Origin: Minisyncoccota bacterium | Lineage (GTDB): Bacteria > Patescibacteriota > Minisyncoccia > Phycocordibacterales > BOKC01 | Assembly: GCA_030583745.1 (NCBI GenBank) | Contig: CP129473.1 | Location: 508,783 to 550,210, forward strand | Length of the DNA stretch: 41,428 bases | Direction of reading: 5' to 3' | Shown: positions 1-31,390 of the stretch, one piece after another | How the letters are laid out: every line of letters starts with the position of its first letter | Position numbering within the stretch: position 1 is the stretch's first letter | Notes under the pieces: model-generated | Seen by the model: the letters and a program-made list of their open reading frames with translations, nothing else | Told to the model about the DNA's origin: nothing | The model's database searches: none | Program-made: the position numbers and the translations under genes

Positions 1-97
1 TACCTTCCTGCCAATGGTTGCAGGTTCCCGAAGCATCCCTATACCCTATTGGCTATACCCTAAACCCTAACTTAACAAGTGCAATTTATCTCCACAA
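1..97 (-). repeat. Junction element copy A. The window opens inside it. It contains a relic Zn-ribbon gene 3' end, the TAGGGT/CCAAT motif and the -35 half of a promoter.
   Basis: nt 1-62 equal 2881-2942 except one base (C11 vs T2891). nt 79-95 equal 2953-2969. Read on the minus strand, 95..72 still spells VEINCTC-stop, like the end of ORF 2946..3140, with synonymous changes. Confidence 0.85.
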
Positions 98-104
98 CAG
101 TAAA

Positions 105-140
105 CACTAAAGGCCCAAGCATTGCTTTGGGCCTTTAGTG
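105..140 (-). terminator. Intrinsic terminator downstream of the Fic gene
   Basis: A 13-bp stem cactaaaggccca / tgggcctttagtg is followed on the minus strand by tttact. Confidence 0.7.
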
Positions 141-208
141 TATGGCTTTCTGCAAGTTCTAATATTCTAAGATTTCGGCAGAGATCCTGAGACTAATTAG
201 AAACCCCT

Positions 209-1354
209 TTAGATACTCTTCAGAATATTAATGAGCTTCCGATTTATGAAGACTGTTTGCTTCTGAAATGTGGCTCCTTGCTGAAGGATTCCGTATTCTT
301 TGAGAAGATTCAGGTATCTTTTACAGGTGGTCACGGGTACACCAGTACTCCTACTCACCATAGGTGCCGTGAGATACGGCTGTTTAAAAGCATAATCAAG
401 TACCATGATCATTCGCATACTTGCTGCCTGCTTTTCGACAACAGCTTTTCCATTCTTGTATAGCTCATCAATATCTAGTACGAGCTTGAGAGAAAGTTCC
501 GCTTGTCTTTGAATACCCTTGAGGAAGAACGTGAGCCACTTATACCAATCCTCTTTCTGATCCACAGCAGAAAGGGCCTTCATGTATGAAGGTTTATGTT
601 CCTCGAAATAACCGCTTGGATAAAGAATGGGCAGCGTAAGGAGACCTTCTTTTATAAGGTATAGCGTAATTAGCAGACGCCCCACTCGGCCGTTACCATC
701 TTTGAAAGGATGGATGGCCTCGAATCTGTGATGAATAACACCACAAGCAATTAACGGATTGAGTTTCCCACTATCTTGCATAAAGGCAATCAACTGCTCC
801 ATCAGCGCTGGCACATGCACTCCGTCTGGTGGAAGATACCTCGCTTTTCCTTTATCCGTGCCATCTTTACCAATCCACACTTCATCCTTTCTGAATTCGC
901 CAGGAAGTTTCTTACTCCCTCGCGCACCATGCAAGAGAGTTTTATGCATCTCCCTTATGACAAACTCACTAAGTCCATGCTTTTCAAGTCCTGCAAGCCC
1001 TTTGTACATTGCCCGTTCGTAATTCACAATCTCCTGCGCTTCGTTTCGCATCTCAACAGATTGTTCAGCAAGACCCAGCTGATACGCATCTTCTATTGAG
1101 GCCTGTGTTCCCTCGAGCTGTGAACTCGATTCGGCTTCCTTTGCCAAAACTGGCCTCATCAAAAGATCAGGGTTCTGTAAAAGACGAGCAGTCTGCCTCA
1201 AACTACCAATTGCACCTTGCGTTTGAGCAAGTTGATTTGCCAATTCTTCATCATAAATCTCCTTAAGCTTTGGGGGGAAAGTATGGCCTAAAATAATGTT
1301 TTCCTTCATCCATCCATTTTTAGCAGAAAATGGTCGGATTGGCAAGTCATCCAA
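209..1354 (-). CDS. Fic family protein (AMPylase-type) with an N-terminal inhibitory motif
   Basis: Carries the canonical Fic motif HPFKDGNGRVGR. An upstream SSQLEG fits the (S/T)xxxE(G/N) auto-inhibition helix. Length is 381 aa. It is G+C-richer than the core genes. Confidence 0.9.
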   Translation of the reverse strand: MDDLPIRPFSAKNGWMKENIILGHTFPPKLKEIYDEELANQLAQTQGAIGSLRQTARLLQNPDLLMRPVLAKEAESSSQLEGTQASIEDAYQLGLAEQSVEMRNEAQEIVNYERAMYKGLAGLEKHGLSEFVIREMHKTLLHGARGSKKLPGEFRKDEVWIGKDGTDKGKARYLPPDGVHVPALMEQLIAFMQDSGKLNPLIACGVIHHRFEAIHPFKDGNGRVGRLLITLYLIKEGLLTLPILYPSGYFEEHKPSYMKALSAVDQKEDWYKWLTFFLKGIQRQAELSLKLVLDIDELYKNGKAVVEKQAASMRMIMVLDYAFKQPYLTAPMVSRSTGVPVTTCKRYLNLLKEYGILQQGATFQKQTVFINRKLINILKSI

Positions 1355-1409
1355 CCATAAATGGTCGGATAACTTTTTGGACGTTCAAAATGCACGATTA
1401 ACGGTCGGA
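1328..1409. promoter_or_regulatory. Three direct repeats of (a)aTGGTCGGA(t) straddling the Fic start codon; possible operator
   Basis: aaatggtcggat occurs at 1328-1339 and 1359-1370, and acggtcggaat at 1401-1411. Repeat starts are spaced 31 and 40 nt apart. Confidence 0.3.
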
Positions 1410-1463
1410 ATATTTCAATCCCTTGGGACGATGCGGAGGTGGTGAGGGAGGAATTGAAGAATC

Positions 1464-1497
1464 AGGGTCTAGGGCGCAGCCAATAGCCAATAGGGTC
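1464..1497 (+). repeat. TAGGGT-repeat/CCAAT motif, copy B (inverted relative to copies A, C and D)
   Basis: cagggtctagggcgcagccaatagccaatagggt. It contains tagccaatagggt (1484-1496), the exact reverse complement of 43-55. It also contains agggtctaggg, matching the reverse complement of 31375-31385. Confidence 0.75.
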
Positions 1498-1555
1498 TAT
1501 TATTTATTGATATTTCACTGGCAAGGTAAAACCCTGTCAGTAGAATTACTATTAA

Positions 1556-1584
1556 GAAAAACCCGCGCCGCAAGGACGCTGGGG
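1556..1584 (-). terminator. Probable intrinsic terminator after the 60-aa membrane-peptide gene
   Basis: A GC-rich bulged stem cccgcgcc-GCAA-ggacgctggg is followed by a T5 run when read on the minus strand. Confidence 0.45.
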
Positions 1585-1626
1585 GGGGGACGAACAGTGC
1601 CAGCCCACAACTCCAAGTGAGAATCC

Positions 1627-1809
1627 TTACTTAGAATTCCTTGAAGTAAGGAACTGGTTGAGGCCTGAAGCAGCAGTAAGAACCAGAACGAGATTCGCGA
1701 TCCAGACGATTCTCGTGATATCCGGCCTGCCCAAAATGAACGGCAAAAAAGCATTAAACATCACGAGAATGAAGATGAGCAACAATGCGAGGAACATGCT
1801 CTTTGGCAT
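1627..1809 (-). CDS. Small hydrophobic membrane protein (60 aa, two predicted TM segments)
   Basis: An AAGGAG Shine-Dalgarno lies 9 nt upstream of the ATG. It has its own promoter (junction copy B) upstream and a terminator downstream. Confidence 0.55.
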   Translation of the reverse strand: MPKSMFLALLLIFILVMFNAFLPFILGRPDITRIVWIANLVLVLTAASGLNQFLTSRNSK

Positions 1810-1926
1810 TTGACTTACTCCTTATGAATGTCTCATCGGGCCGTGAAACGCCTACCAAGAAACCCTGATTCTGTTTGTAATATTAGCACAAACTCTTGAA
1901 ACCACAAGTTTCTATATATGCCCCCG

Positions 1927-1968
1927 ATTATACACAAAAATACCTTCCTGTCAATGGTTGCAGGTTCC
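1927..1968 (-). promoter_or_regulatory. Junction element copy B (short form) carrying a consensus sigma70 promoter
   Basis: 1941-1968 is identical to 2881-2908. The minus strand reads TTGACA (1954-1949), a 16-nt spacer, then TATAAT (1932-1927). Confidence 0.7.
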
Positions 1969-2010
1969 GCGCGATCTCTAAAACCTTACTGTGGGATTAA
2001 CCAGACAAAG

Positions 2011-2034
2011 AAAAAGCCCCGCATCGCTGCGGGA
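2011..2034 (-). terminator. Intrinsic terminator after the 189-aa ORF
   Basis: The minus strand reads cccgc-agcgat-gcggg followed by gcttttt. Confidence 0.55.
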
Positions 2035-2109
2035 CTTCTATGTCTACGTCTGATATGTTGCGACAATTTTATCGCAAGCAAAGAGCCCAAAAGTTCAGAG
2101 CGTCAAGTC

Positions 2110-2679
2110 CTAAGCGCTAACTTGCGCGGATGGTGGCGGAGGCGGAAACATGGCTCTCGCATCGAACTGGCGGTAGATGGATCGCCAGCAAGCCCAGTCG
2201 TAGTCCCAGTACAGACACCGGGCGCAGAGGATGCCATCAGGGTTGCAGTAGACCGTTCCCCAGAAGAAGATGTAATGGATGTAGCCCCGCTCATCCACCT
2301 TCCAGCTGTCGGGAATAAGGTCGGGATGAGCCAAGAGGTAGTCGAGAACGTTGGCATTCAGGAATGGCTCCTTCGCGAGCTCCTCGAGGGACTTCTTGTC
2401 ATCGATGGATTTGTTGCCCATATGATTCGGTGGGAAGGTAATCTTCTTGCCATCCAAGAACAAATCGTCGCCCTCGCGCGTGAGCTGGAGGTTGCCAGAC
2501 TTCGTGTGCTTTTCCACCTTCCAGCCGTCTGGCACGAACGGGTCGGCGCTACAGTTGATGATGTGGTTCTTGATGACAACAGCGAGCTCGTCACGAAGGA
2601 GCCGATCGACACCCTCCTCGCCACCCAGCTTGTCCCAGACGGCTTCGATGCGGCCCAAAGTGTTAGGATACTTGCTCAT
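2110..2679 (-). CDS. Hypothetical protein (189 aa) with a Trp/Tyr-rich C-terminus (FFWGTVY...CLYWDYDWACW)
   Basis: An AAGGAG SD lies 6 nt upstream of the ATG. It has a dedicated promoter and terminator. It is strongly G+C-rich. No family is recognised with confidence. Confidence 0.7.
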   Translation of the reverse strand: MSKYPNTLGRIEAVWDKLGGEEGVDRLLRDELAVVIKNHIINCSADPFVPDGWKVEKHTKSGNLQLTREGDDLFLDGKKITFPPNHMGNKSIDDKKSLEELAKEPFLNANVLDYLLAHPDLIPDSWKVDERGYIHYIFFWGTVYCNPDGILCARCLYWDYDWACWRSIYRQFDARAMFPPPPPSAQVSA

Positions 2680-2866
2680 GACATCTCCTTTCCGACTTCT
2701 AGTCGGATTTTTCTACTTACCCTACTAGGGTTCGAGTGGTTTGTGCCATTTGTGCCAGATGACGACCACACTGGTAGTCATAGCCAGAAAACCTCTATTT
2801 TAAAGGTCTTTTGGCTATGACCGCCTTTTTACAAATAGCTCTTTTAGGTACAAATTTCTGCTTTAG

Positions 2867-2969
2867 ATTATACATAAACATACCTTCCTGTCAATGGTTG
2901 CAGGTTCCCGAAGCATCCCTATACCCTATTGGCTATACCCTAGTTCTAGCAGGTGCAATTTATCTCCAC
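2867..2969 (-). promoter_or_regulatory. Junction element copy C (full form): Zn-ribbon gene 3' end, TAGGGT/CCAAT motif and a consensus promoter
   Basis: The minus strand reads TTGACA (2894-2889), a 16-nt spacer, then TATAAT (2872-2867). It is near-identical to copy A over 62 nt. Confidence 0.75.
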
Positions 2970-3140
2970 CATCCCGCACTTCTTGCACTTTAATTTCATT
3001 TTACCCGCATTAATGCACGCTCTCCAATGACTTGGATCAAAAACAGCCGAAGTTATTTTGCATTCCGGGCATTTGAAGCCGTCAACTTCCCCGCCGCAGG
3101 TTGAGCAATGTTTGCTTGAAGCAATATTTATATGACTCAT
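2946..3140 (-). CDS. Small Cys-rich zinc-ribbon protein (64 aa)
   Basis: CxxC pairs are present (CSTC, CPEC, CKKC) plus a terminal CTC. A GGGAG lies about 13 nt upstream of the ATG. Confidence 0.55.
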   Translation of the reverse strand: MSHINIASSKHCSTCGGEVDGFKCPECKITSAVFDPSHWRACINAGKMKLKCKKCGMVEINCTC

Positions 3141-3281
3141 GATTTAATTTTACTCCCTGAATAGATAATGTAAAATGACTACGAACTACTTAGTACTAAC
3201 TAAAAACTAATTCATCCTCTCAAAATTTTTGGCTGTGAAATTATGATAATAGATTTTACCCCGCCCTATTTTTTAAAAAGC

Positions 3282-3436
3282 CATCCCGCCCCAATTTCAC
3301 TTTTTCAAAACAACAGATAGTGGTTAAATGTTATTATGTTGAGTATCCCATCTGCGACAGGCTTCGCCCGGCAAAGGATGAGCTATTCGCTCACGCCTGT
3401 CGCATGTAAATCAAAAGGTGAAATTGGAGCGGGATG
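3282..3436. ncRNA. Candidate structured RNA or palindromic element (~155 nt) in the Zn-ribbon/fpg divergent spacer
   Basis: A 24-position closing helix pairs 3282-3305 with 3413-3436 (one mismatch, one wobble). An inner 10-bp stem tgcgacaggc/gcctgtcgca (3351-3360/3395-3404) contains a nested 5-bp hairpin tgagc-tattc-gctca. On the minus strand the helix is followed by a T5 run. Confidence 0.4.
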
Positions 3437-3475
3437 CTCAAAAATTATATTCATTAACATTCATTAATTTTTGGC

Positions 3476-4459
3476 ATGCCAGAACTACCCGAAGTCCACA
3501 CAACCGCAAAAATGCTAAATAATCTTCTGTCCGGACGGAAGATTTTAGATGTCTGGACAAGTTATGGAGGGGTGATTCACGAGGGCAAAAATCATATAAA
3601 AAACAGAAAATATTTTTCTGGATTTAAGAAAAAAGTTGTTGGTGAGAAAGTGAAGAGTGTCAGCCGGCGGGGTAAAAATGTTTTGATTCATCTTTCAGAC
3701 AACAAAACAATTTTAGTTCATATGAAAATGACGGGCCACTTACTTTTCGGTAGCTATCGAAAAGTAAGTGGAAACTCTAAGTCCGAAACTCTAAATTCTA
3801 AACAAGCTCAAAATTCAAAATCTAAAATTACAAACAGCTGGGAAAAAGAAAAATGGATGCCAAATGAACCGGCAAAATCACCACTTTGGGATCCTTTCAA
3901 CAGATTCGTTAGATTGGTTTTTATCCTCTCTGGCAAAAAACACTTGGTTCTCTCCGATGTTCGTAAATTTGCCAAAGTTTGCTTGATTGAAAAGGATGAA
4001 AAAACTGACATTGATACGCTTGGGCCGGAGCCACTTGAAAAAAGTTTCGGATTTTCGAATTTCAAGTTTCAACTTATGAAAAAACCAGCCTGGAAAATCA
4101 AAACCGCGCTAATGAATCAAGAACTCATCGCCGGAGTTGGAAATATTTATTCAGACGAAGTTCTTTGGCTTGCCGACATTCATCCGGAAAGCCAAGTTTC
4201 AAAAATCCCAGAGAAAAAAAAGAAAATTTTGTTTCAAGAGCTAAAAATAATTTTAAAGAAAGGAATTGAATTCAGTGGCGACTCAACATCGGACTATCGC
4301 CGGCCAGATGGTCAACGTGGGTCTTTTCAACACCACCATAAGGTTTACCAAAGAAAAGGAGAAAGGTGCCTTAAAAAGAACTGTGCCGGAACAATTTCCA
4401 GAATTGTCGTCACCGGCCGTAGCGCTCATTTCTGCCCCAAACACCAAAAAAAATACTAA
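3476..4459 (+). CDS. mutM: Formamidopyrimidine-DNA glycosylase (Fpg/MutM) with a low-complexity insertion
   Basis: It has the N-terminal MPELPEV catalytic signature and an H2TH region. A C-terminal Cys4-type zinc finger is present (C..C...C..H/C). Confidence 0.9.
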   Translation: MPELPEVHTTAKMLNNLLSGRKILDVWTSYGGVIHEGKNHIKNRKYFSGFKKKVVGEKVKSVSRRGKNVLIHLSDNKTILVHMKMTGHLLFGSYRKVSGNSKSETLNSKQAQNSKSKITNSWEKEKWMPNEPAKSPLWDPFNRFVRLVFILSGKKHLVLSDVRKFAKVCLIEKDEKTDIDTLGPEPLEKSFGFSNFKFQLMKKPAWKIKTALMNQELIAGVGNIYSDEVLWLADIHPESQVSKIPEKKKKILFQELKIILKKGIEFSGDSTSDYRRPDGQRGSFQHHHKVYQRKGERCLKKNCAGTISRIVVTGRSAHFCPKHQKKY

Positions 4460-4938
4460 ATTTCCAAAATTCTAAATAGAGCGATGCCGGTAGCTACCGA
4501 AACGTTGAGAGACTCTTTTTTACCCTTCATCGGAATTTCAGCCACAACGTCGCTTAATTTTAAAACTGATTCTGGCAGACCATCTACTTCCCCGCCCAAA
4601 ACAAAAGCGGCTTTTTCTTTGGCTGAAACTGTTTTGTAATCAACTGAATTTTTGGACTGTTCGATTGAGATAATTTGAAAACCTTCTTTTTTAAGATTTT
4701 TTAAAACTTCTAAAGAAGATTCGGCTTTCTCCCAAGGAATGTTTTTTTCAGCGCCGAGAGCAACTTTGGCCAAATCTTTTCTCGTCCGACCGAAACGATC
4801 TTTTGGAGTCGGTGTTACGCCTACTAAATAAATTTTTGAAACGCCGCAAGTATCAGCGGTTCTAAAAATAGAACCAACGTTATGAACGCTCCGAATGTCA
4901 CACAAAATTAAAACTGTATCTTTTTTACTGTTGGCCAT
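4456..4938 (-). CDS. SpoU/TrmH-family RNA 2'-O-methyltransferase
   Basis: The motifs HNVGSIFRTADTCGV and IPMKGKKESLNVSVATGIALF are typical of SPOUT methyltransferases. Confidence 0.85.
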   Translation of the reverse strand: MANSKKDTVLILCDIRSVHNVGSIFRTADTCGVSKIYLVGVTPTPKDRFGRTRKDLAKVALGAEKNIPWEKAESSLEVLKNLKKEGFQIISIEQSKNSVDYKTVSAKEKAAFVLGGEVDGLPESVLKLSDVVAEIPMKGKKESLNVSVATGIALFRILEI

Positions 4939-4959
4939 TGACTATTTTTAAGATAAAAT

Positions 4960-5370
4960 GTGAGCATGCTTAATCCTTTCCCTGAACTTTTAACTTACGG
5001 ACTTATGGCGCCATTTATTCTGCGTCTAGTTGTCGGTTACTTATTTATAAATCTTGGCTACTTGAAACTGACCTCGGAAAAGGGTCGGTGGTTATCTTCT
5101 GTCAGTTCTTTAAGATTAAAGCCGGCGGAATTTTTTGTAAAGATTTTTGCTTTGATGGAAATTATTGGTGGAGCAATGCTTTTTATCGGTCTTTACACCC
5201 AAGTCGCTGCTTTGGCTTTGGCATTTTTGACCTTTAGCGAGCTTTATGTTGAGTATAAAGAAGAAAGTTTGCTTAAAAGAAATCTGGTTTTTTATCTTTT
5301 GCTTTTTGCCATCTGCCTTTCTCTTCTTTTTTCTGGAGCGGGTTTCTTGGCTTTTGACTTGCCGCTTTAG
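4960..5370 (+). CDS. DoxX-family membrane protein
   Basis: It has four hydrophobic segments. The LRLVVGYLFINLGYLKL pattern is typical of DoxX. Confidence 0.55.
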   Translation: MSMLNPFPELLTYGLMAPFILRLVVGYLFINLGYLKLTSEKGRWLSSVSSLRLKPAEFFVKIFALMEIIGGAMLFIGLYTQVAALALAFLTFSELYVEYKEESLLKRNLVFYLLLFAICLSLLFSGAGFLAFDLPL

Positions 5371-5408
5371 AATTTTTTGATATATTTTAGTTTTGTAAAT
5401 CTGCCTAA

Positions 5409-5555
5409 AGCTGTTTTGGTAGGTATGAAGTTAGTTATTTCCGATTATAGCTGTTTTGGTAGGTATGAAGTTAGTTATTTCCGCTTATAGCTGTTTTGGT
5501 AGGTATGAAGTTTATTATTTCCGATTATAGCTGTTTTGGTAGGTAGGTATGAAGT
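5409..5555 (+). repeat. 40-nt tandem repeat, about 3.6 copies, immediately upstream of tRNA-Lys
   Basis: The unit agctgttttggtaggtatgaagttagttatttccgattat starts at 5409, 5449, 5489 and 5529. The last copy is partial and carries a ggta duplication. Full units differ by 1-2 substitutions each. Confidence 0.9.
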
Positions 5556-5565
5556 AAAAATATAT

Positions 5566-5638
5566 CCGCCCATAGCTCAATTGGTAGAGCAGTTGACTTT
5601 TAATCAATTGGTTGTAGGTTCGAGTCCTACTGGGCGGA
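5566..5638 (+). tRNA. tRNA-Lys (anticodon UUU), no encoded CCA
   Basis: A manual cloverleaf fits. The acceptor stem is ccgccca/tgggcgg and the D stem gctc/gagc. The anticodon stem gttga/tcaat carries the loop cTTTTaa. The T arm is gtagg-ttcgagt-cctac and the discriminator is A. Confidence 0.9.
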
Positions 5639-5642
5639 CAAG

Positions 5643-6347
5643 TTATATCTTCAAAATAAATTTTTCTAGACTAGAGAGAAAATCTATTTTGCCTAAATGG
5701 GCTTCGTGATAAAGCGAATTCAAACCAGAAGAAAGTTTTTTCAAATCTTCGGCTGAAAAATTCTTTGAAAATTCCTTGGCTTTTTTATAAGGAAACGATT
5801 TTAACCCGCTCTCGGCTTCATTTTTTGAATCCAAGACAATCAAAATATTTTTTACCTGCCAAAAAAGCACTCCCAGAATTTCTTCCGGAGTAAAGCCGGC
5901 TGTTTGGGCTTTTAGAAAAAGAATCCAGAATTTTTTTCGATCTCTTCGACCAAAAGCGTCTGAAAGACTATAGAGATTAAAAGGTCTAATCTCCGGTAAA
6001 TCCATCTTCTCTATTTTTGCTTTCCCTTTCAAAACTTCAGTTAGTTTTTTTTCTTCTTCCGTCTCCAATAAAACAAACACATTAGGAGACTCTGAAAAAC
6101 CTAAGACGCTCTCTAAAAACAAATCTCTAAATTCAGATACGGAAAAAATTTGGTCAAAGACTGCGATAATTTGTTTTTCAAAAAGACCCTGCCCTTTAAT
6201 CAAGTTTTCAATTTCAGACCGAGAAAAATTATCCTGAACAAAACGTAAAACAGAATTACTACCCGTCTTTTCTTGAAATTCTCGGATCAAATCAGCCAAA
6301 CGCCTGTTTTTCTTTACGTAGTCATTACCAAAAAGCGCGATTATCAT
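5643..6347 (-). CDS. Hypothetical protein; possibly a short DNA polymerase III delta subunit (HolA-like)
   Basis: It is translationally coupled (ATGA overlap) to the upstream polA. The N-terminal LFGNDxxxxxxxL pattern and helical composition resemble HolA. The call is weak. Confidence 0.35.
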   Translation of the reverse strand: MIIALFGNDYVKKNRRLADLIREFQEKTGSNSVLRFVQDNFSRSEIENLIKGQGLFEKQIIAVFDQIFSVSEFRDLFLESVLGFSESPNVFVLLETEEEKKLTEVLKGKAKIEKMDLPEIRPFNLYSLSDAFGRRDRKKFWILFLKAQTAGFTPEEILGVLFWQVKNILIVLDSKNEAESGLKSFPYKKAKEFSKNFSAEDLKKLSSGLNSLYHEAHLGKIDFLSSLEKFILKI

Positions 6348-8752
6348 ATTTTACTTTTGAGAGGTTTAAGTTCTAACCAATTTTTGCCGACTTCTGCGCT
6401 TGCCAAAAGCGGCACCCCGTTTATTTCTTTCGGATCCAAAACTCTTTCCATAATTTCTTTAATTTTTGGTACTAATTCTTCCAATAAATCGTTATGAATT
6501 TCGTAAACCAACTCATCGTGAATCTGCAAAACCAAACGAACTTTATCTTGCAATTCATTTTCCTGAACATATCTATCAACCCCAATCATCGCCAACTTTA
6601 TTATATCGGCTGCAGTCCCTTGGAGAGGTGCGTTAACTGCCATTCTTTCCGCCGCTGAACGAATATAATCTATACCGGACCTAAGCGCCGGAAAGTATCG
6701 ACGACGTCCAAAAAAAGTCTCTGTGAAGCCATTTTTTCTGGCTTTTTCTTTTACATCTTCCAAATAAGTGGCTAGGGTTGCAAACTTTTTAAAATAATCA
6801 TCAAGAAATCTTTGAGCTTCCTCCCTACTTGATCCCAAACTAAGACGCAAGGCGTTTACCCCCATACCATAAATAATTCCAAAATTTATAACCTTGGCTT
6901 TACGCCTCATTTCATAATTAACTTTTTCAATTGGTACTCCAAAAACCTCTGAGGCTACGGCGCTGTGGATGTCGCCATTTTCGTGAAAAACATTAATTAA
7001 TTTTTTTTCGCCCGAAAGAAAAGCTGCAACTCTAAGCTCAATTTGCGAGTAGTCAAAAGCCGAAAGCTCAAAACCTTCCTCGGCGACAAAAGCTTTTCGT
7101 ATCCTTTTACCCAGTTCAGTCTTTATTGGGATGTTCTGCAAATTCGGAGAGTTTGATGACATTCGCCCAGTTGTTGTCCCGGTTTGAGAAAATTTGGCAT
7201 GCAGTCGACCGTCGGCAGACAGCATTTCTGGGATGTTGTCTATATAGGTTGAGAGAAGTTTCTGAAATTCTCGATACTCCAAAATCAGGGGTATTACCGG
7301 ATGCAAGTCTTTCATTTTCTCTAATTCTGATTCGCGTGTTGATTTGGCGCCAGTTGAAGTCTTTTTCTGGTTTTTCGGCTTAAGCTTTAGGTTTTCAAAA
7401 AGAATAACCCCCAACTGTTTCGGAGAGTTGATATTAAATTCCAAACCGGACAATTGCCAGATTTTCTTCTCTAATTTCGAAAGCTCTGTGTGATATTCAC
7501 CGGAAAGCTCTTTCAGAAAGGAGGTGTCAATTTTTATTCCCCGATCTTCCATCCTCTCAACAACTGAAATGAGAGGAGTTTCAATTTCTTCAAATAATTT
7601 TTTTAAATTTCTTTTTTCTAACTCGACAAAAACTTTTTCTTTTGCCTTCTCAAAAGAATCGGTTGATGCAAATCTCAAGACATCTTCGGTTGTTGGATTT
7701 GTAATGTTAGAATCCAACAACCAAAGAGCCACGAGTGTTTCTTTTAAATCTTTTTCTGGAATCCTATAATTTTTGGAATGGTCAATAAGTTCCAAACGAG
7801 GGTCTTCTTTTTTTTCTGAAAAATCATTTTTAACTCTGTCAGCCAAAGCCCTGAATTCTAAATCTTCAAAAATCTTCAAAATTTTTGATTTGTCCAAAAT
7901 TTTCACCCACTCTTTTTCTGGTAATTTAAAATCTATCGGCACCTCTCTGTTTATAAGCGCCAAAGTTTTAGAAAATATGGCTTCTTCTTCGTTGTTTAGC
8001 AAAATCTCTATAATTCTCTTTGAAACTCCAACCTTCTCAAATCTCTCCGGCGCTCTTTTCAATTCTTTGTACATATCCTCAATAGTCCTGAATTCTTTTA
8101 TTAAAATACTAGCGGTTTTTTCCCCAATACCCGGCACCCCAATAATATTGTCAGATGGGTCACCCCTCAAACCCTTATAGTCAGGTAGGAGTTCTGGACC
8201 AAAACCAAACCTCTCTCTCACGCCGTTTTCATCATAAACTACTGTATCTTTTATTCCCTTTTTTAAGGTATATACTCTGACTTTATCACCAGAAACCAAC
8301 TGCAAAGTGTCCATGTCGCCAGAAGCGATTATGATTTCAAGGTCTTTCTGTTTCTTTAGTTTTTCTACTATTGTTCCCAAAAGATCGTCAGCTTCGTATC
8401 CAGGCATCTCATAAGTTGGGATACTGAAACTTTTAAAAACTTCTTTTGATTTTTCAATTTGCCAGATTAAATCTTCCTTGGTCTTGGCTCTTTTGGCCTT
8501 GTATCCCTCATAAGCTTCGTGGCGGTAGGTCGGCTTGCCGACATCAAAACAAGCAACTATGTAGTCCGGCTTAAATTCAGAAATAATTTTAAGAAGCATA
8601 AGGGATAGACCGTAGAGAGCGCCGGTCGGCTCACCTTTATTGGAAGAAAAGTCTGGTAGAGCATGATAAGCTCGATGAAGAATAGCTTGTGCGTCCAAAA
8701 GGACCAGCCGTTTTTTATCTTTGTCTTTAGTTTTAGTCATTTTTAAGTTCAA
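6344..8752 (-). CDS. polA: DNA polymerase I
   Basis: It has an N-terminal 5'-3' exonuclease/FEN domain. Polymerase motifs DYSQIELR, RRKAKVINFGIIYG and QIHDELV are present. Confidence 0.95.
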   Translation of the reverse strand: MNLKMTKTKDKDKKRLVLLDAQAILHRAYHALPDFSSNKGEPTGALYGLSLMLLKIISEFKPDYIVACFDVGKPTYRHEAYEGYKAKRAKTKEDLIWQIEKSKEVFKSFSIPTYEMPGYEADDLLGTIVEKLKKQKDLEIIIASGDMDTLQLVSGDKVRVYTLKKGIKDTVVYDENGVRERFGFGPELLPDYKGLRGDPSDNIIGVPGIGEKTASILIKEFRTIEDMYKELKRAPERFEKVGVSKRIIEILLNNEEEAIFSKTLALINREVPIDFKLPEKEWVKILDKSKILKIFEDLEFRALADRVKNDFSEKKEDPRLELIDHSKNYRIPEKDLKETLVALWLLDSNITNPTTEDVLRFASTDSFEKAKEKVFVELEKRNLKKLFEEIETPLISVVERMEDRGIKIDTSFLKELSGEYHTELSKLEKKIWQLSGLEFNINSPKQLGVILFENLKLKPKNQKKTSTGAKSTRESELEKMKDLHPVIPLILEYREFQKLLSTYIDNIPEMLSADGRLHAKFSQTGTTTGRMSSNSPNLQNIPIKTELGKRIRKAFVAEEGFELSAFDYSQIELRVAAFLSGEKKLINVFHENGDIHSAVASEVFGVPIEKVNYEMRRKAKVINFGIIYGMGVNALRLSLGSSREEAQRFLDDYFKKFATLATYLEDVKEKARKNGFTETFFGRRRYFPALRSGIDYIRSAAERMAVNAPLQGTAADIIKLAMIGVDRYVQENELQDKVRLVLQIHDELVYEIHNDLLEELVPKIKEIMERVLDPKEINGVPLLASAEVGKNWLELKPLKSKI

Positions 8753-8786
8753 AGATCAAAGTCCCAAATTCAATTTTTGAGTTTGA

Positions 8787-9248
8787 TTAGAACCCAAGGT
8801 TTAGGTTTTTAATTGACTTGATTTCTCTCTCCGACTCGTTTACAACTCTTAATCTAATGATAACAGCTCCTTTAGGAATCACACTAATCACATTTTCCGG
8901 CCACTCAATAAAAACTAAGTTGTCTTGTTCGGAAACAATATCCTGCCAACCAAGACTCAAAAGCTCGCTTCCAGACTTAAGTCTGTAAGCGTCAATGTGT
9001 ATAAGGTTCTTGAAAGACGGGGTGTTGATTTTATAACGTTTCAAAATTACAAAGGTGGGGCTAGTGATATGCTCTTTGATTCCGAGCGCTTTTGCCAAAG
9101 ACTTTACAAGGGTGGTTTTACCGGCTCCAAGCTCACCGGAAAGACATATGATCACGGCTTGTTTACTCTGTTGTTTTGAATAAAGTAGCTTGACCAAATT
9201 TTTTGCAAAATCGTCAGTCTCTTTTAAGCTTTTTGAAATAAACTTCAT
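8787..9248 (-). CDS. tsaE: tRNA t6A biosynthesis ATPase TsaE
   Basis: It has the P-loop GELGAGKTTLVKSLAKALGI, a SPTF motif and typical size. Confidence 0.9.
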   Translation of the reverse strand: MKFISKSLKETDDFAKNLVKLLYSKQQSKQAVIICLSGELGAGKTTLVKSLAKALGIKEHITSPTFVILKRYKINTPSFKNLIHIDAYRLKSGSELLSLGWQDIVSEQDNLVFIEWPENVISVIPKGAVIIRLRVVNESEREIKSIKNLNLGF

Positions 9249-9277
9249 AAAACAATTTTAACAGACAAAACGACCAT

Positions 9278-10993
9278 TTGTTCAAACACGCTAAAGGGGT
9301 TAAAATGTACTTGATTATGGCCAAATTTCAAGAAGAAAAACAGAACCTGAAAATCGAGGAATTAAGAAAGTCCGAAGCAGAAGAATTGGCCCAAACTCTT
9401 TCTTCAAAGTACGGTCTTTCGTATATTGATTTAACAATAAGTCCAATAAATATAGAAGCCCTGAAAATTTTAAGTGAAAAAGACGCTAGAGCGTTCGGGC
9501 TTGCTGTTTTTGATGTCATAAATAAACGCCTGAAAATCGGCATCTTAGCACCCAACAATCTAAAAAGTCGAGAAATGATAGAATCTCTAAAAAGAAAAGG
9601 TTACCAGATAGAGTTGTACATGGTCTCTCAAGAGGGTCTAAACAGGGCGTGGGAAAGATACGCTGATCTTCATACATCAGTAAAAACAAGAAGTGGCGCT
9701 CTCGATATTTCCAACGAAGGTCTTTTAAGTTTGATAAAAAACGCCAACAGTCTTGACTCAATAAAACAGCTTGTAGAAAAAAATCTGGTTTCAAAAGAGA
9801 TTAACCGGACCTCAAAAATTCTTGAAGTGATATTAGCCGGCGCTTTGTCTATAAAAGCTTCAGATATTCACTTGGAGCCGGAAGAAAATTATGTTCGCCT
9901 GCGCTTTCGATTAGACGGAGTCTTAACCGACATCTTGAATTTTGATAACGCAACATACAAACTTTTATTGTCTAGAATAAAACTTCTTTCGGGGCTGAAG
10001 CTAAACATAACAAGCCAAGCTCAGGATGGGCGATTTAGTATTATTTTAAAAGACGAAGAAATAGAAATAAGAACCTCAATTTTACCCGGAGCTTATGCCG
10101 AAACAATAGTTTTGAGAATCCTGAATCCAAAAGCGATATCCGTGTCTTTAGAAAATCTAGGCATGCATCCACGTCTGTTGAAAGTCTTACTTTACGAAAT
10201 AAGTAAGCCAAACGGTATGATTTTAACCACTGGTCCAACTGGCTCTGGAAAGACAACAACCCTTTACGCCTTCCTAAAAAAAATCCACCAGCCGGGAATT
10301 AAAATAATTACAATTGAAAATCCGATTGAATACCACCTACCGGGAATTGTCCAAACACAAACCGACAACAAAGAGGGTTACACCTTCCTCTCTGGTTTAA
10401 GAAGTGCTCTGCGACAAGACCCAGATGTCATAATGGTTGGCGAAATTCGAGATTCTGAAACAGCTTCGGTCGCCATCAACGCCGCTCTTACTGGACACTT
10501 GGTTTTTTCAACACTCCACACCAACAATGCCGCCGGCACCTTCCCTCGCCTCATAGACCTGAAGATAAATCCGAAGGTTATAACTTCGGCAATCAATGTA
10601 GCTATGGCTCAACGCCTTGTAAGACGGCTTTGTCCTAAGTGCCGAAAAGTTAAAAAATTGTCAGGGCAAGAGAGAAGTTCGGTTTTAAAAATTTTGGAGT
10701 CTATAAAAGAAAAAAGCTACCTTGAAAATCTACAAACAGAAAATGTTTGGGAAACCCAGGGTTGCAAAGAATGCAACTTTACCGGTTTTGCCGGAAGAGT
10801 TGGGGTTTATGAAGCTATAAGAACCGATGAAAAAGTTGAGGGAGTAATACAAAATAATCCGAGCGAGCGAGAAATAAAAAAAGCGGCAGAAAATCAGGGG
10901 CTTTTAACCATGGCGCAAGACGGAATAATTAAGGTTTTTCAAGGAGTTACGTCTATAGCTGAACTTGAAAGAGTGGTTGAACTGCTAGAATAA
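9278..10993 (+). CDS. pilB: GspE/PilB-family secretion/type IV pilus assembly ATPase (orphan; no pilC/pilM/pilT adjacent)
   Basis: Walker A is GPTGSGKTTT. Asp/His boxes and a tetracysteine CPKC...CKEC are present. The true start may be an internal Met (about 9305 or 9317). Confidence 0.9.
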   Translation: MFKHAKGVKMYLIMAKFQEEKQNLKIEELRKSEAEELAQTLSSKYGLSYIDLTISPINIEALKILSEKDARAFGLAVFDVINKRLKIGILAPNNLKSREMIESLKRKGYQIELYMVSQEGLNRAWERYADLHTSVKTRSGALDISNEGLLSLIKNANSLDSIKQLVEKNLVSKEINRTSKILEVILAGALSIKASDIHLEPEENYVRLRFRLDGVLTDILNFDNATYKLLLSRIKLLSGLKLNITSQAQDGRFSIILKDEEIEIRTSILPGAYAETIVLRILNPKAISVSLENLGMHPRLLKVLLYEISKPNGMILTTGPTGSGKTTTLYAFLKKIHQPGIKIITIENPIEYHLPGIVQTQTDNKEGYTFLSGLRSALRQDPDVIMVGEIRDSETASVAINAALTGHLVFSTLHTNNAAGTFPRLIDLKINPKVITSAINVAMAQRLVRRLCPKCRKVKKLSGQERSSVLKILESIKEKSYLENLQTENVWETQGCKECNFTGFAGRVGVYEAIRTDEKVEGVIQNNPSEREIKKAAENQGLLTMAQDGIIKVFQGVTSIAELERVVELLE

Positions 10994-11051
10994 AAAGGTG
11001 TGAATTGCGATATTGATTTCTGATTTATTACGTGAAATGATCAAGTAATAA

Positions 11052-11191
11052 AAAACACAAACCTCTAAGCAACACTTTTAAGTGGAACAAAAAAGCATGG
11101 TTGATAGCTAGGGATAATTTCAGCCAAGACCAAAAGGTCCCCGCTAAAAACCAAAAGGCCCGGAGGCCCGTTGCTTAGAGGTTTGTGTTTT
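11052..11191. repeat. Perfect 22-bp inverted repeat enclosing 96 nt (MITE-like element or structured RNA)
   Basis: aaaacacaaacctctaagcaac (11052-11073) is the exact reverse complement of 11170-11191. The interior contains the ccaaaagg(t/c)cc direct repeat and the hairpin ggcc-cgga-ggcc. T-runs follow the helix on both strands. Confidence 0.6.
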
Positions 11192-11298
11192 CAATTTGCC
11201 AAATTTCTTAGGCACAACCATCCTAGCATAAAACATGGTTTATGTCAAATGTTTTAAACTTTCAAAAAATAGTAAAATGACAGAATAAAAAGACAAGT

Positions 11299-12297
11299 AT
11301 GGGAAAAAAAGAGGTAGAAGAAAAAAACGATTTTCAATATTTAGACCAAAAACTTCGACCGAGTAGGTGGGATGAATACATAGGCCAGAAAAATATAAAA
11401 GATAATTTGCATATTTTGCTCTCGGCAGCGAAAGAAAGAGAGCATCCACCGGAACATATTCTCTTTTATGGCCCGCCCGGGCTCGGTAAAACAACTTTAG
11501 CGCATTTAATTGCCAAAGAAATCAGTGCTCAGATAAAAATAACTTCCGGTCCAGCGATTGAAAGGGTCGGAGACTTGGCTTCAATTTTAACCAATCTCTC
11601 ACCGGGCGACATTCTATTTATTGACGAAGTCCATCGACTGAACAAAGTCATTGAAGAGGTTTTGTATCCGGCTATGGAGTCTGGCACCTTAGATATTGTC
11701 TTAGGTAAAGGACCTTCAGCCCGTACCGTGCAGTTAGAATTGCCACCCTTCACCTTAATTGCCGCTACCACCAGAGTAGCGCTTATTTCCTCTCCGCTTC
11801 GTAGTCGTTTTTCCGGCGGGATTTTCCGCTTGGAATACTACAACCAAGAAGAAATAGCCGAAATCGTCAGACGGTCAGCAAAAATTTTGGGAATTGAAAT
11901 TGATGACAAAGCGGTTTTGGAAATTGCCAAGCGCAGCCGCTTTACGCCTCGCACCGCCAATTATTTTCTTAAGAGATGTCGCGATTATGCCCAGATTAAA
12001 AAACGAGGGCTGGACGAGAAAACAGCAAAAGAGGCTTTAGAGCTTTTGGGAATTGATGAAATGGGGCTTGCATCATCTGACCGAAAAATTCTTGAGGTTA
12101 TCGCCGAAAATTTTAAAGGCGGACCGGTCGGGCTTAACACCCTTTCAGCTTCCATTTCCGAAGAGATGGCAACGATCGAGGAATACAACGAACCGTATTT
12201 AATCCAGATCGGCTTTTTGGAACGCACCCCTCGCGGTCGCTCATTAACCGATCTTGGCTTTAAACATTTAGGTCGCAAAAAAGAGGGGTTGTTTTAA
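11299..12297 (+). CDS. ruvB: Holliday junction branch migration helicase RuvB
   Basis: Walker A is GPPGLGKTTLA and Walker B is LFIDEVHRL. The rest shows RuvB-typical AAA+ and winged-helix segments. Confidence 0.95.
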   Translation: MGKKEVEEKNDFQYLDQKLRPSRWDEYIGQKNIKDNLHILLSAAKEREHPPEHILFYGPPGLGKTTLAHLIAKEISAQIKITSGPAIERVGDLASILTNLSPGDILFIDEVHRLNKVIEEVLYPAMESGTLDIVLGKGPSARTVQLELPPFTLIAATTRVALISSPLRSRFSGGIFRLEYYNQEEIAEIVRRSAKILGIEIDDKAVLEIAKRSRFTPRTANYFLKRCRDYAQIKKRGLDEKTAKEALELLGIDEMGLASSDRKILEVIAENFKGGPVGLNTLSASISEEMATIEEYNEPYLIQIGFLERTPRGRSLTDLGFKHLGRKKEGLF

Positions 12298-12451
12298 AAA
12301 AATATAAAGGTTCCTCGAGTCAAGCCCCAAGGGTAATGTACAAACAACTTTTGGCACCTTTAATAAATACACACAGGTAGTTTTAAGTAGTTTTAATGTA
12401 CCCAAAAACAATAACATACCCATTAATAACATGTCCATTTCAGTTCAGGCA

Positions 12452-12493
12452 TTTTCAAACAATCTATGACGGCCGTCATAGATTGTTTGAAAA
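12452..12493. terminator. 42-nt perfect palindrome with a GACGGCCGTC core (REP-like / bidirectional terminator)
   Basis: The sequence is ttttcaaacaatctatgacgg|ccgtcatagattgtttgaaaa. Confidence 0.6.
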
Positions 12494-12574
12494 TTTAATT
12501 CTTGATGTTAAAATTAATAAAGCAAGAAATAAAAGAGAAGAAAGTATAAAAAATAATTAAGACAAATAAAAAAT

Positions 12575-13069
12575 ATGATTTACAGGGGAACAATAACTGA
12601 AATGCTCCTTAAAGCCCTTCTTTACAAGACCCACTCTTTCAGAGAGGTTGAAGAAATGGTTAAAAAATATAAACCTAACAAAGAGGTTTCCCGAATTTCA
12701 ATTTTAAACACTCTTTATAGGTTGAAAAAGAGGGGTTTGGTCACCAAAACGGCTTCCGGCTGGTCGGCAAACAAGACCACTAAATCGGCACTTGCTAATA
12801 GAAGTAATTTTAATAAAAATTATTTTTCTAAAAACAAAAAAGATGGACAGATAAAAGAAATGATTGTTATGTATGATATTCCAGAAAATCTAAGAGCAAA
12901 ACGGGAGCGCTTACGAGAAGGATTAAAAGCTTTAGAGTTTAAACAAAAACAGCAAAGTGTTTGGATTGGACCAGCCCCATTACCAAAAGAGTTTATTAAA
13001 TATCTTGCTGAATTGAAAATAATAAAATTTATCAATTTTTTTCAAGTCAAAGAAAAGGATATTGTTTAA
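12575..13069 (+). CDS. Winged-helix protein with a C-terminal PaaX_C/Cas2-like ferredoxin-fold segment
   Basis: The N-terminal ILNTLYRLKKRGLV is wHTH-like. The C-terminal IVMYDIPENLRAKRERLREGLKALEFKQKQQSVWIGP follows the beta-alpha-beta pattern of Cas2 and the PaaX C-domain. Confidence 0.5.
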   Translation: MIYRGTITEMLLKALLYKTHSFREVEEMVKKYKPNKEVSRISILNTLYRLKKRGLVTKTASGWSANKTTKSALANRSNFNKNYFSKNKKDGQIKEMIVMYDIPENLRAKRERLREGLKALEFKQKQQSVWIGPAPLPKEFIKYLAELKIIKFINFFQVKEKDIV

Positions 13070-13106
13070 TCAAACATTTTAAGACGGCCGTCTTAAAATG
13101 TTTGAT
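13067..13106. terminator. 40-nt perfect palindrome, a homologue of the 12452 element
   Basis: The sequence is aatcaaacattttaagacgg|ccgtcttaaaatgtttgatt. It shares tcaaaca..t.ta.gacggccgtc with the upstream copy and overlaps the stop codon. Confidence 0.6.
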
Positions 13107-13323
13107 TAGTAAAACAAAATTTTATTAATTAATATTATTAATTAATTCTCTGTTAACCAGTGATTTAAATTCTGTTAACTGGTATCAAAATACTATGAAT
13201 TGGAATTCAAATTGTAAACTAGTATCTAAAAGAAGTCTGTTAAAACCATAGAAATACGAAAATAAGAAGCGAGAGATAAATATGTTACTATCTATAAAAT
13301 TGAAGTTTAAAATTTATTAAAAT

Positions 13324-30539: not shown

Positions 30540-30992
30540 TTACCCGATTTTTTCTGACACCTTGCTGTCTTTGTATCTCCTGATTTCTTCTCCCTGTTCT
30601 TTCACATCTAATTTCCAAGTTAAGTCTTTGAGTTTTGAGCCGGTCAGTCGTGGAACAAACTCATCCGGCATTTTTTCTGTTTGTTTCGCATCTTTTATTA
30701 CTATCTCTTCTTTTTCTTCTTTTCTCCAAATATAAAGTTTGCCGGAGAGCAAGTATTTAAAAGCTGCCTCAAGAATTTCAATGAATGGTTTGTTATTGAT
30801 TTTCCAAAATGCCAACGCTAGACCCAAAGCACCAATTGGTAGGATAAGTAAAAGAGCTAAAAAACGCGGCAAGACATTATATAGCACGATTATAATTCCA
30901 GCTGTTCCGGCAAGATAAATAAACTGCTTTAAAGTAAAAGGGCCGATAATTTTGTCCTCTACTTCTATAAATTGTGGGACTTGAAAACGCAT
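30540..30992 (-). CDS. PrgI/VirB3-like small membrane protein
   Basis: The N-terminal VPQFIEVEDKIIGPFTLKQFIY is followed by two TM helices, matching PrgI-family architecture. It lies upstream of virB4. Confidence 0.6.
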   Translation of the reverse strand: MRFQVPQFIEVEDKIIGPFTLKQFIYLAGTAGIIIVLYNVLPRFLALLLILPIGALGLALAFWKINNKPFIEILEAAFKYLLSGKLYIWRKEEKEEIVIKDAKQTEKMPDEFVPRLTGSKLKDLTWKLDVKEQGEEIRRYKDSKVSEKIG

Positions 30993-30995
30993 AAG

Positions 30996-31008
30996 CTAGG
31001 GTTTAGGG
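30996..31008 (+). repeat. Short TAGGGT-repeat motif (copy E), inverted partner of 31375-31388
   Basis: ctagggtttaggg is the reverse complement of ccctaaaccctag. Compare ccctaaaccctaa at 58-70 and ccctagaccctaaa at 31375-31388. Confidence 0.6.
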
Positions 31009-31048
31009 AAGAAAGAAGTTTGTTTAACATCTTCATTACTTCCACTAA

Positions 31049-31358: not shown

Positions 31359-31360
31359 TT

Positions 31361-31388
31361 CCCTATTGGCTATACCCTAGACCCTAAA
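31361..31388 (-). repeat. TAGGGT-repeat/CCAAT motif copy D, abutting the pseudogene start and the stop of the 326-aa gene
   Basis: ccctattggctataccctagaccctaaa matches 46-69 (ccctattggctataccctaaaccctaa) at all but one position. Confidence 0.8.
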
Positions 31389-31390
31389 TC

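Follow-up and report, generated by a model that had tools for sequence, protein, structure and literature searches.

Heptanucleotide arrays around a Fic gene and an IVP gene in a Patescibacteria genome: probable arms of a family of palindromic intergenic elements

A 41,428-nt stretch of a Minisyncoccota bacterium genome (GenBank assembly GCA_030583745.1, contig CP129473.1, positions 508,783 to 550,210; here called the window) carries inverted copies of a motif built of TAGGGT repeats around a CCAAT core, which flank a gene for a Fic protein at its left end and a second gene-sized insert at 31 kb. The question raised by this locus is what such an arrangement represents: the initial annotation took both inserts for recombination-site-bounded modules or very small mobile units, with a shared repressor-operator motif as the alternative. 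The motif is not specific to Fic: palindromic intergenic elements of one family, common in the Candidate Phyla Radiation (CPR, Patescibacteria), have it as an arm. We favor, at a probability of roughly 0.68, the reading that arrays of two to five heptanucleotide units form the arms of these palindromic elements, often together with a gene for a 23S rRNA intervening-sequence protein (IVP), and that Fic merely lies between two of them.

Each motif copy listed in the initial annotation is present where it was placed, the 13-nt inverted pair at 43-55 and 1484-1496 is exact, and the partial inverted partner reported at 30996-31008 is found as TAGGGTTTAGGGAA (30997-31010). The core TAGCCAATAGGG matches the window at 44-55 (minus strand), 1484-1495 (plus), 2924-2935 (minus) and 31361-31372 (minus), four occurrences against 0.09 expected, and none of 100 shuffled sequences reached four. 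Four points had been missed, two of which concern the arrays themselves: the motif has a strict 7-nt period, being composed of units of the form TAGGGTN or TAGCCAN, and the polarity of the pair around Fic is opposite to that of the pair around the 31-kb unit. Five arrays are present in the window. Array A (35-69, minus) holds five units (TAGGGTT, TAGGGTA, TAGCCAA, TAGGGTA, TAGGGAT) and follows the stop codon of a relic zinc-ribbon gene; array E (1463-1497, plus) also holds five (cAGGGTC, TAGGGCG, cAGCCAA, TAGCCAA, TAGGGTC), two of them with TAG changed to CAG; and array C (2915-2942, minus), with four units, begins 3 nt past the stop codon of the zinc-ribbon gene and is the convergent partner of array E. 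The remaining two are the arms of the 31-kb unit, and the longer of these (31359-31393) is, like array C, a near variant of array A. GGG tracts number three to four per window array, four being reached only in array A, with loops of 4, 11 and 4 nt.

At 31 kb the insert, whose identity had been missed as well, is a PF05635 gene (31016-31358, minus; also TIGR02436) encoding an IVP, a four-helix bundle, which is split here into two open reading frames (ORFs) that both match PF05635 (1.8e-21 and 9.7e-12). The intact protein of sister strains hits TIGR02436 at 2.3e-37 and scores above the cut-off of NF008911, its closest solved structures are 2gsc (XCC0516, E 1e-22) and 2rld, with five chains per entry, and a weak match to bAvd (PF22296/NF033474, E 1.5e-07) lies below cut-off. 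A 10-nt tandem duplication (cttctgcaag twice, 31192-31211) shifts the frame; it is found also in run X2 and is missing from runs X13 and X16 and from the sister loci L039 and L040, where the ORF of 127 aa is intact, so that the gene in the window strain is a fresh pseudogene. Its 5′ arm (31359-31393, minus; TAGGATT, TAGGGTC, TAGGGTA, TAGCCAA, TAGGGAA) ends 0 nt before the IVP start codon (ATG, 31358), and the first TAG of this arm serves as stop codon to an upstream gene of 326 aa (...CTCGAA TAG). The 3′ arm (30997-31010, plus; TAGGGTT, TAGGGAA) stops 4 nt (GCTT) short of the start codon of prgI (30992), a PrgI-family gene, and the whole cassette (30997-31393) sits between these two genes of a type-IV-secretion-like operon. 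In both the minimum-free-energy and the centroid folds of 30985-31400 (minus) the 5′ arm pairs with the 3′ arm, with a whole-domain z of only -1.4. Contig depth over 31032-31397 is two to three times that of the flanks in runs X2, X13, X15 and X16, and several other contigs stop precisely where the arms end on the outside (loose ends at 30997, 31386, 31393 and 31395), which indicates that similar IVP cassettes occupy other sites in the same communities.

The family to which these arms belong extends well beyond this genome. Among GTDB genomes, 26 loci (L001-L026) carry the 19-mer TAGGGTATAGCCAATAGGG without a mismatch, their hosts being Paceibacterota, Saccharibacteria, Kaiserbacteria, Daviesbacteria, Campbellbacteria and unclassified Patescibacteria; in the viral contigs searched, neither this 19-mer nor the promoter repeat described below was present. 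The 19-mer always lies inside a heptamer array whose units come from a limited set (TAGGGTA 51, TAGGGTT 42, TAGCCAA 38, TAGCCAC 16, and others), and since unit types are so few, exact identity of the 19-mer between lineages does not by itself require recent transfer. In-register TAG units number two in 15 arrays, three in 13, four in 18, five in 22 and six in a single one, a sharp cap at five. The placement of the arrays is likewise regular. In a tally from which ORFs below 80 aa had been filtered, 33 of the 52 arrays with at least three units have the 5′ (outer) end of their TAG sense within 15 nt of the end of a coding sequence (CDS): 22 come after a same-strand stop codon, which in 10 cases is the array's own TAG, and 11 adjoin the start of an opposite-strand gene. 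The others adjoin ORFs below the filter, rRNA or tRNA genes, or contig ends, and all five window arrays follow the same placement rule. With a period of 7 nt, which 3 does not divide, three TAG units provide a TAG stop in every frame.

Arrays are moreover paired. Among 24 neighboring pairs within 1.5 kb, 20 are convergent (TAG-sense inward), two tandem and two divergent, and the loop of a convergent pair measures 2-60 nt or holds a PF05635 gene. Unit types that differ tend to be mirrored on the two arms, TAGCCAC standing opposite GTGGCTA, and when eight arm pairs were folded, four gave z values of -4.5 to -7.4, three of about -2 to -3.5, and one of -0.4. Every IVP gene detectable in the window and the 26 loci (4 of 4: window 31016-31358, L026, L004 and L015) lies between convergent arrays. 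Remnants are also found between arms, the first ~14 codons only in L011 and a C-terminal remnant in L005, so that gene-less pairs are plausibly derived from gene-bearing ones.

Two observations on individual arrays may be recorded here. In L006 (7238-7330, minus sense) a convergent array pair in the 5′ untranslated region of tuf (EF-Tu) fills the gap between a consensus-like promoter and the ATG, and the stretch from array to start codon has no Shine-Dalgarno sequence. A second vocabulary, TAGCTTN/TAGGTGN/TAGGTTN, coexists with TAGGGTN arrays in several genomes (L001 603-637, L024 1372-1399, L005 7850-7877, L004 4235-4255) and equals that of the arms of an IVP cassette in L056.

The junction upstream of prgI allows the cassette to be followed through relatives, which were picked by PrgI identity. 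In the closest of these (PrgI 97%), the arms are as in the window (L040) or differ by one unit (L039). At 72% (L044/45) the IVP has decayed to 91 aa and the arms have decayed as well. More distant junctions hold different cassettes: in L046/47 (65%) arms of TAACTTA/TAACTGA ... TCAGTTA go with an IVP 25% identical to that of the window, in L056 (61%) arms of TAGCTTT/TAGGTGT ... AAAGCTA with one 49% identical, and in L059 (63%) GGAATAA-like arms with one 39% identical. In L061-63 (64%) the site is empty, with neither IVP nor heptamers and an unrelated spacer of 72 nt. At all filled junctions the first arm unit starts exactly at the upstream stop codon. Conversely, IVPs at unrelated sites that are 58% (L004, Kaiserbacteria) and 53% (L026, Saccharibacteria) identical to the window protein have arms of the same TAGGGTN/TAGCCAN vocabulary. 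These swapped states at one junction, together with the vocabulary held in common elsewhere, support the view that the arm unit tracks the IVP lineage rather than the genomic site, gene and arms traveling together, and the junction appears from these comparisons to have been filled, emptied or refilled several times. The proposal of a small mobile unit is thereby partly supported: leaving the mechanism aside, it would hold for the IVP unit, given the swaps and the empty spacer, and it is not supported for Fic. In L056 the operon has, besides the IVP cassette, another small insert, a gene of the PDDEXK_3 family (PF13366) between prgI and a TraC-like gene (2445-2840).

The association recurs outside the CPR. 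We took IVP homologs from plasmids of unrelated phyla and read their flanks (n = 12): short tandem repeats, of period 7 and in some cases 8, flank 10-11 of the 12 genes, with none at Calothrix, and for most the run downstream repeats, in reverse complement, the one upstream. In Nostoc edaphicum eight TAGGGAG units upstream and five CTCCCTA units downstream enclose an IVP gene located between two ribonucleotide-reductase subunit genes; the corresponding units are TAGGGTG and CACCCTA in N. punctiforme (after a recombinase gene), AGGGAAC and GTTCCCT in Nostoc C052, GGGAAAA and TTTTCCC in Geminocystis, and GGTGACA and TGTCACC in Anabaena 90 (before cas4). Units of GGAGATA type in Picosynechococcus (between cas10 and cmr3) and GGTTYAA in Riemerella (between an Fe-S assembly accessory gene and sufB) likewise have their complement downstream. 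Gemmatirosa has an 8-nt unit, Azospirillum has heptamers around an IVP copy inside 23S rRNA, and Leptolyngbya is a further host with repeat-flanked IVP genes. Cyanobacterial arms reach 7-8 units.

How, then, did Fic come to lie between inverted copies of the motif? The gene (209-1309, minus; intrinsic terminator 104-141, minus) encodes a SoFic-like adenylyltransferase with Fic_N, Fic and a C-terminal winged helix-turn-helix domain, and it is located between two elements, not within one. Positions 1-62 and 2881-2942 are 98% identical direct repeats, part of a repeat of ~97 nt that had been overlooked, and in minus order this block runs from the end of a zinc-ribbon gene (its final eight codons plus stop) through an array to a promoter. 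Its intact copy belongs to the 64-aa zinc-ribbon gene (2946-3140, minus); the other includes a relic (72-98, minus; VVEINCTC*) and the upstream half of the promoter block (1-34, minus, a copy of 2881-2914, with its -35 box TTGGCA at 14->9 and its -10 box past the window start). Between 72-98 and 2946-2972 there are three differences, all at synonymous or stop positions, which suggests that the relic was copied from a functional allele. On the other side of Fic lies the relic 3′ end of a Mur-ligase-like gene (1417-1462, plus; PWDDAEVVREEL...), whose reading frame enters array E and stops at its fourth unit.

The origin of both relics is clarified by L028, a sister strain found by a metagenome scan for the promoter repeat, which is 99.1% identical to window 2755-12481 and different to the left of 2755. 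Its gene order is RuvA, the Mur-ligase-like gene, ~1.1 kb of G+C-rich cargo, leader and promoter (those of window 2755-2914), a minus array and the zinc-ribbon gene. Window 1421-1457 is identical to the end of the intact Mur-ligase-like gene (L028 2894-2930), with no homology leftward of 1421, and in run X1 the unitig 1421-1461 has twofold depth and its other branch runs on into an intact Mur-ligase-like gene. Loose ends at 1456-1461 in runs X13 and X16 are probably from this intact copy and not from the relic, and are uninformative on variation of array E. In L028 the plus-sense array encodes the last codons of the Mur-ligase-like gene, and array turnover thus rewrites the protein tail: the C-terminus written by the array is KLGYRV* in L028 (2920-2975) and KNQGLGRSQ* in the window relic (1440-1486).

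By this comparison, arrays E and C appear as the convergent pair that matches that of L028, enclosing a swapped cargo, namely a 60-aa and a 189-aa gene in the window and a 211-aa gene with its own terminator, unrelated to the 189-aa gene, in L028; neither of the latter two has a family match. The window cargo genes have their own terminators: the membrane-like 60-aa gene (1627-1809, minus) has one at 1565-1579 and is driven by promoter B (1954->1927), and the 189-aa gene (2110-2679, minus) has one at 2012-2039 and is preceded by a structured leader and promoter C (2680-2914, minus; promoter 2894->2867). Promoters C and B, the latter a third copy of the core, both match TTGACA-16-TATAAT at 12 of 12 positions. 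Runs X15 and X16 lack window 1500-2200. The strain breakpoint on the right, at 2755, falls in the common leader and not in an array, so the arrays are not demonstrably recombination sites.

Further sequence features near the cargo were noted. The leader of ~110 nt (window 2755-2866, L028 4101-4212) contains a 10-bp stem, GTCATAGCCA...TGGCTATGAC, and has been kept while the gene it drives was replaced. A loosely similar segment, recognized by eye, follows cargo terminators at window 1517-1546 and 1977-2010 and at L028 3016-3045 and 3304-3335 (minus), reading ..CACAG[C/T]AAGGTT[A/T][A/T]A.. / ..TGACAGGGTTTTACC..; a pattern search for this post-terminator motif (CACAGYAAGGTT-like) found nothing. 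Farther to the right, the window holds two perfect spacerless palindromes centered on GACGG|CCGTC (12451-12494, 22+22 nt; 13067-13108, 21+21 nt) and a 40-nt tandem repeat of ~3.6 units (5389-5545) that runs into the 5′ side of tRNA-Lys(UUU) (5566-5639).

We propose the following model. A complete element would consist of two convergent arrays abutting the flanking coding sequences, often giving the upstream gene its stop codon, with a loop that is a few nucleotides long or else houses a PF05635 four-helix-bundle (IVP/S23p) gene. Gene and arms would be gained, lost and replaced as a unit at permissive junctions, and internal deletion may give rise to gene-less arm pairs. Once transcribed, the arms may pair into an imperfect stem of ~20-35 bp, of the kind cut by RNase III in rRNA intervening sequences (IVSs), and stops in three frames would render an insertion at or over a stop codon harmless. 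At the left end of the window, the three gene-less arrays would mark the ends of the Mur-ligase-like and zinc-ribbon genes, which face each other across strain-variable, promoter-driven cargo; recombination would then have duplicated these array-bearing gene ends, leaving Fic between the zinc-ribbon relic (72-98) and the Mur-ligase relic (1417-1462). The resulting order, Mur ... array/promoter/zinc-ribbon relic, Fic, Mur relic/array ... zinc-ribbon, would be expected from one crossover of the chromosome with a further copy of the locus, circular or tandem, that carried Fic, and such an event is its probable origin.

The reading of Fic itself as a mobile or site-bounded module, with the copies at 43-70 and 1464-1497 as its ends, has some appeal: a perfect 13-nt inverted pair encloses the gene and its terminator, Fic is an accessory gene, richer in G+C, in a strain-variable island, and its product shows a weak likeness to the 'mobile mystery protein B' model, below that model's cut-off. 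We nevertheless regard it as very improbable, since the polarity of the pair is the reverse of the 20 convergent pairs (it is one of the two divergent ones), a relic host-gene 3′ end is attached to each array, positions 1-98 and 2881-2972 form a direct repeat that includes a promoter, and the pair homologous to the convergent pair of L028 is 1463-1497/2915-2942, which encloses the cargo cassettes. With relic gene ends on both sides, the Fic region (98-1416, with terminator and upstream region) lies, as the comparison suggests, between a zinc-ribbon end plus array and a Mur-ligase end plus array, and its two arrays are therefore inverted and outward-facing; an ordinary 136-aa gene in L026 (6413-6823) shares this divergent geometry, between two elements. 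An operator or activator site of one regulator acting on Fic, the cargo cassettes and the IVP gene is the other explanation already on offer. In its favor, identical consensus promoters are found next to the arrays at 35-69 and 2915-2942, with the -35 box 20 nt downstream of the array, the IVP start codon follows immediately on the array at 31359-31393, and heptamer repeats near promoters affect the action of NtcA and LexA at recO in Nostoc (bioRxiv 10.1101/2022.06.06.494920). However, only two of the five window arrays are near a promoter and these two are a single duplicated block, promoter B has the same core without an array, array E and the arm at 30997 have no promoter, and position is not constant: across the 26 loci arrays are found after stops, before opposite-sense starts, downstream of a promoter (tuf in L006) and beside rRNA and tRNA genes. 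A regulator site is thus a very unlikely account.

Two further explanations would detach the arrays from the IVP altogether. If they were neutral heptanucleotide microsatellites produced by replication slippage, functionless and unrelated to the IVP, this would agree with heptamers being the most over-represented class of long simple sequence repeats in many bacteria (PMC4679880; PMC4692102) and with the difference in unit content between close strains (L039 and the window); but the units are not identical copies, belonging to a fixed vocabulary whose order on one arm mirrors that on the other, the number of units is capped at five without a tail, orientation to CDS ends is strict, convergent pairs exceed divergent ones 20:2, and the link to a single gene family is seen again in other phyla, which makes slippage alone a highly improbable origin. 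An integron-like cassette array at the left end of the window, with the motif as part of an attC-type site, is in our view extremely unlikely. Co-oriented single-gene cassettes with a recurring junction element on the 3′ side of each gene, and with contents that differ between strains, do recall an integron; yet a consensus promoter and a terminator belong to every single cassette, the motif is missing from junction B, the RYYYAAC...GTTRRRY core pair is not in the repeat, there is no integrase in the 41-kb window or in L028, and core genes of many genomes are flanked by these arrays too. As candidates for what might recognize or generate the units, a HutP-type reader (UAG-N4-UAG), Csp/Y-box (CCAAT) binding and telomere-like TTAGGG synthesis were set aside, the arm units of relatives being without these motifs.

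More interest attaches to the question of whether the IVP reads its arms, an idea that is compatible with the palindromic-element reading and adds a mechanism to it. We tentatively suggest that PF05635 proteins are putative sequence-specific readers of their own heptamer arms, a pentameric ring binding one 7-nt unit per protomer. The fuller version, in which the arrays are putative RNA or single-stranded DNA sites of a pentameric IVP, gene and arms a self-propagating pair, and gene-less arrays dispersed targets, is somewhat more doubtful, and that one pentamer reads five heptamers is speculative. The sharp cap at five in-register TAG units would fit, as would the five chains in 2gsc and 2rld and a homopentameric toroid that has been reported (Lin, 2006, as cited in PMC4990558 and PMC3936711). 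The unit differs with IVP lineage at one junction and is constant with similar IVPs elsewhere, TAGGG-type arms tend to go with the most similar IVPs, and Xanthomonas, the host of XCC0516, has ~186 GGGAATC arrays, 70 of them in convergent pairs (PMC4692102). Against this, cyanobacterial arms have 7-8 units, some with period 8, common descent of the whole cassette can explain the co-variation, the IVP tree is poorly resolved, and the arrays persist in the window although its IVP is a pseudogene.

Several points also weigh against the palindromic-element reading as a whole. The case for movement is a comparative one; no target-site duplication is recognizable when filled junctions, which extend from the stop codon nearly to the start codon (a few nt short of it), are set against L061-63, and no recombinase or transposase tied to the arms was seen in the window or the loci. 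With the genes on both sides of the prgI junction conserved, its IVP lineages could have been swapped by homologous recombination (allelic replacement) and not by transposition. Given that 2 of 15 forks of the IVP tree are supported, the co-variation of protein and arm unit is just a trend, and as the 26 loci were picked by the motif itself, the array statistics are biased towards arrays of at least three units and should be interpreted with caution. Several arm pairs are poorly complementary (z about -0.4 to -2 in three of the eight folded), cutting of the arm stem by RNase III is inferred from rRNA IVSs only, and contigs from RNA runs cross both arms at low depth, so that processing is visible neither way. 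The duplication model for Fic is incomplete, being built on sequence from window position 1 rightwards; a contig search with Fic, RuvA, the zinc-ribbon protein and Fpg gave short unitigs broken at repeats, or no record.

Short palindromic intergenic repeats that are co-transcribed and have gene-less derivatives are familiar from Correia/NEMIS, REPIN-RAYT and RPE elements, the Neisseria ones being processed by RNase III. The convergent arrays resemble the terminal inverted repeats of miniature inverted-repeat transposable elements, from which they differ in that no transposase or RAYT was seen in the window or the loci, no target duplication is recognizable, and the arm heptamers vary by copy and lineage. 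Avd of diversity-generating retroelements (DGRs) is a homologous pentameric four-helix bundle which interacts with both nucleic acid and a partner enzyme; the IVP matches it weakly, and unlike DGRs the window cassette has no reverse transcriptase or TR/VR pair nearby and its repeats are heptamer arrays. Closer parallels are provided by three systems, and the window element belongs with IVS-type IVP elements and convergent heptamer arrays as their CPR variant. In the ORF-bearing 23S IVSs of Leptospira (Ralph and McClelland, 1993) and Coxiella burnetii (Warrier et al., 2016; PMC4990558), a PF05635 ORF lies in the loop of an inverted-repeat stem, is often decaying, and is accompanied by repeats of strain-variable number. 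In Coxiella 2-4 GACAGAT heptamers, inside a 28-bp stem cut by RNase III, directly precede the S23p ORF (PMC4990558), just as five units end at the ATG in the window. Such IVSs are regarded as selfish, with no mobility enzyme known (PMC4990558). They are located in helices 9, 25 or 45, whereas the window element lies between protein genes of an operon and at gene ends (an Rfam scan of the window found tRNA-Lys only, and no rRNA), its arms are wholly heptamers with a TAG stop per unit, and gene-less arm pairs are dispersed in the genome.

The second parallel is with the GGGAATC repeats of Xanthomonas and the GGGGA(C/T)T repeats of Nostoc PCC 7120 (Rehm et al., 2015; PMC4692102), which are likewise intergenic, of 7-nt period and with G-tracts, frequently form convergent pairs on opposite strands (70-75 per Xanthomonas genome), and keep their position while varying in length between relatives; that study names no gene family and does not mention S23/IVP. 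It stresses G-quadruplexes formed by G3-4 tracts, whereas CPR units mix GGG and CCA and are capped at five. The third is with the TAACTGA repeats of marine Beggiatoaceae, cyanobacteria and Bacteroidetes (MacGregor, 2015; PMC4679880), two to six tandem heptamers in intergenic spacers that run over the stop codon upstream or border on the start codon downstream, have forward-sense stops in all frames and lack a Shine-Dalgarno sequence before the start. The TAACTGA/TAACTTA unit itself forms the arms of the L046 IVP cassette, at the same junction as that of the window. These repeats are direct, with one indirect pair, and were proposed as sites of a translational regulator without a link to the IVP (PMC4679880), unlike the TAGGGTN/TAGCCAN units of the window. 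IVP genes within cas operons have also been noted, with the repeats unmentioned (PMC3936711). No paper in the literature searched ties heptamer repeats to the PF05635 gene family, and relative to that literature the link is new.

Three loose ends may thus be one thing. To our knowledge, ORF-bearing 23S IVSs have been known since 1993 without their mobility ever being explained, the heptanucleotide excess in Xanthomonas, cyanobacteria and Beggiatoaceae has had no explanation, and the huge four helix bundle protein family has no function known outside the Avd of DGRs. For the CPR bacteria, our comparison describes an abundant type of element with a defined unit vocabulary and a five-unit cap, whose arrays supply the stop codons, and even the C-terminal residues, of core genes such as the Mur-ligase-like gene, and which bound a strain-variable cargo island; the states of the prgI junction provide comparative evidence that gene and arms travel together. 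For annotation, it follows that inverted arrays are not to be taken as the transposon ends of a gene that happens to lie between neighboring elements. If PF05635 proteins do read their arms, reading by a pentamer would explain the five-unit cap, the prgI junction would be a natural swap experiment in which each IVP lineage brought a different arm unit, and one explanation would serve for 23S rRNA IVSs, for the TAACTGA and GGGAATC repeats and for the large four helix bundle family. Gene and arms would then be a self-propagating system colonizing junctions that are transcribed (rRNA helices, spacers in operons, ends of genes), and the gene-less arrays left behind would punctuate genes with three-frame stops and cleavable stems.

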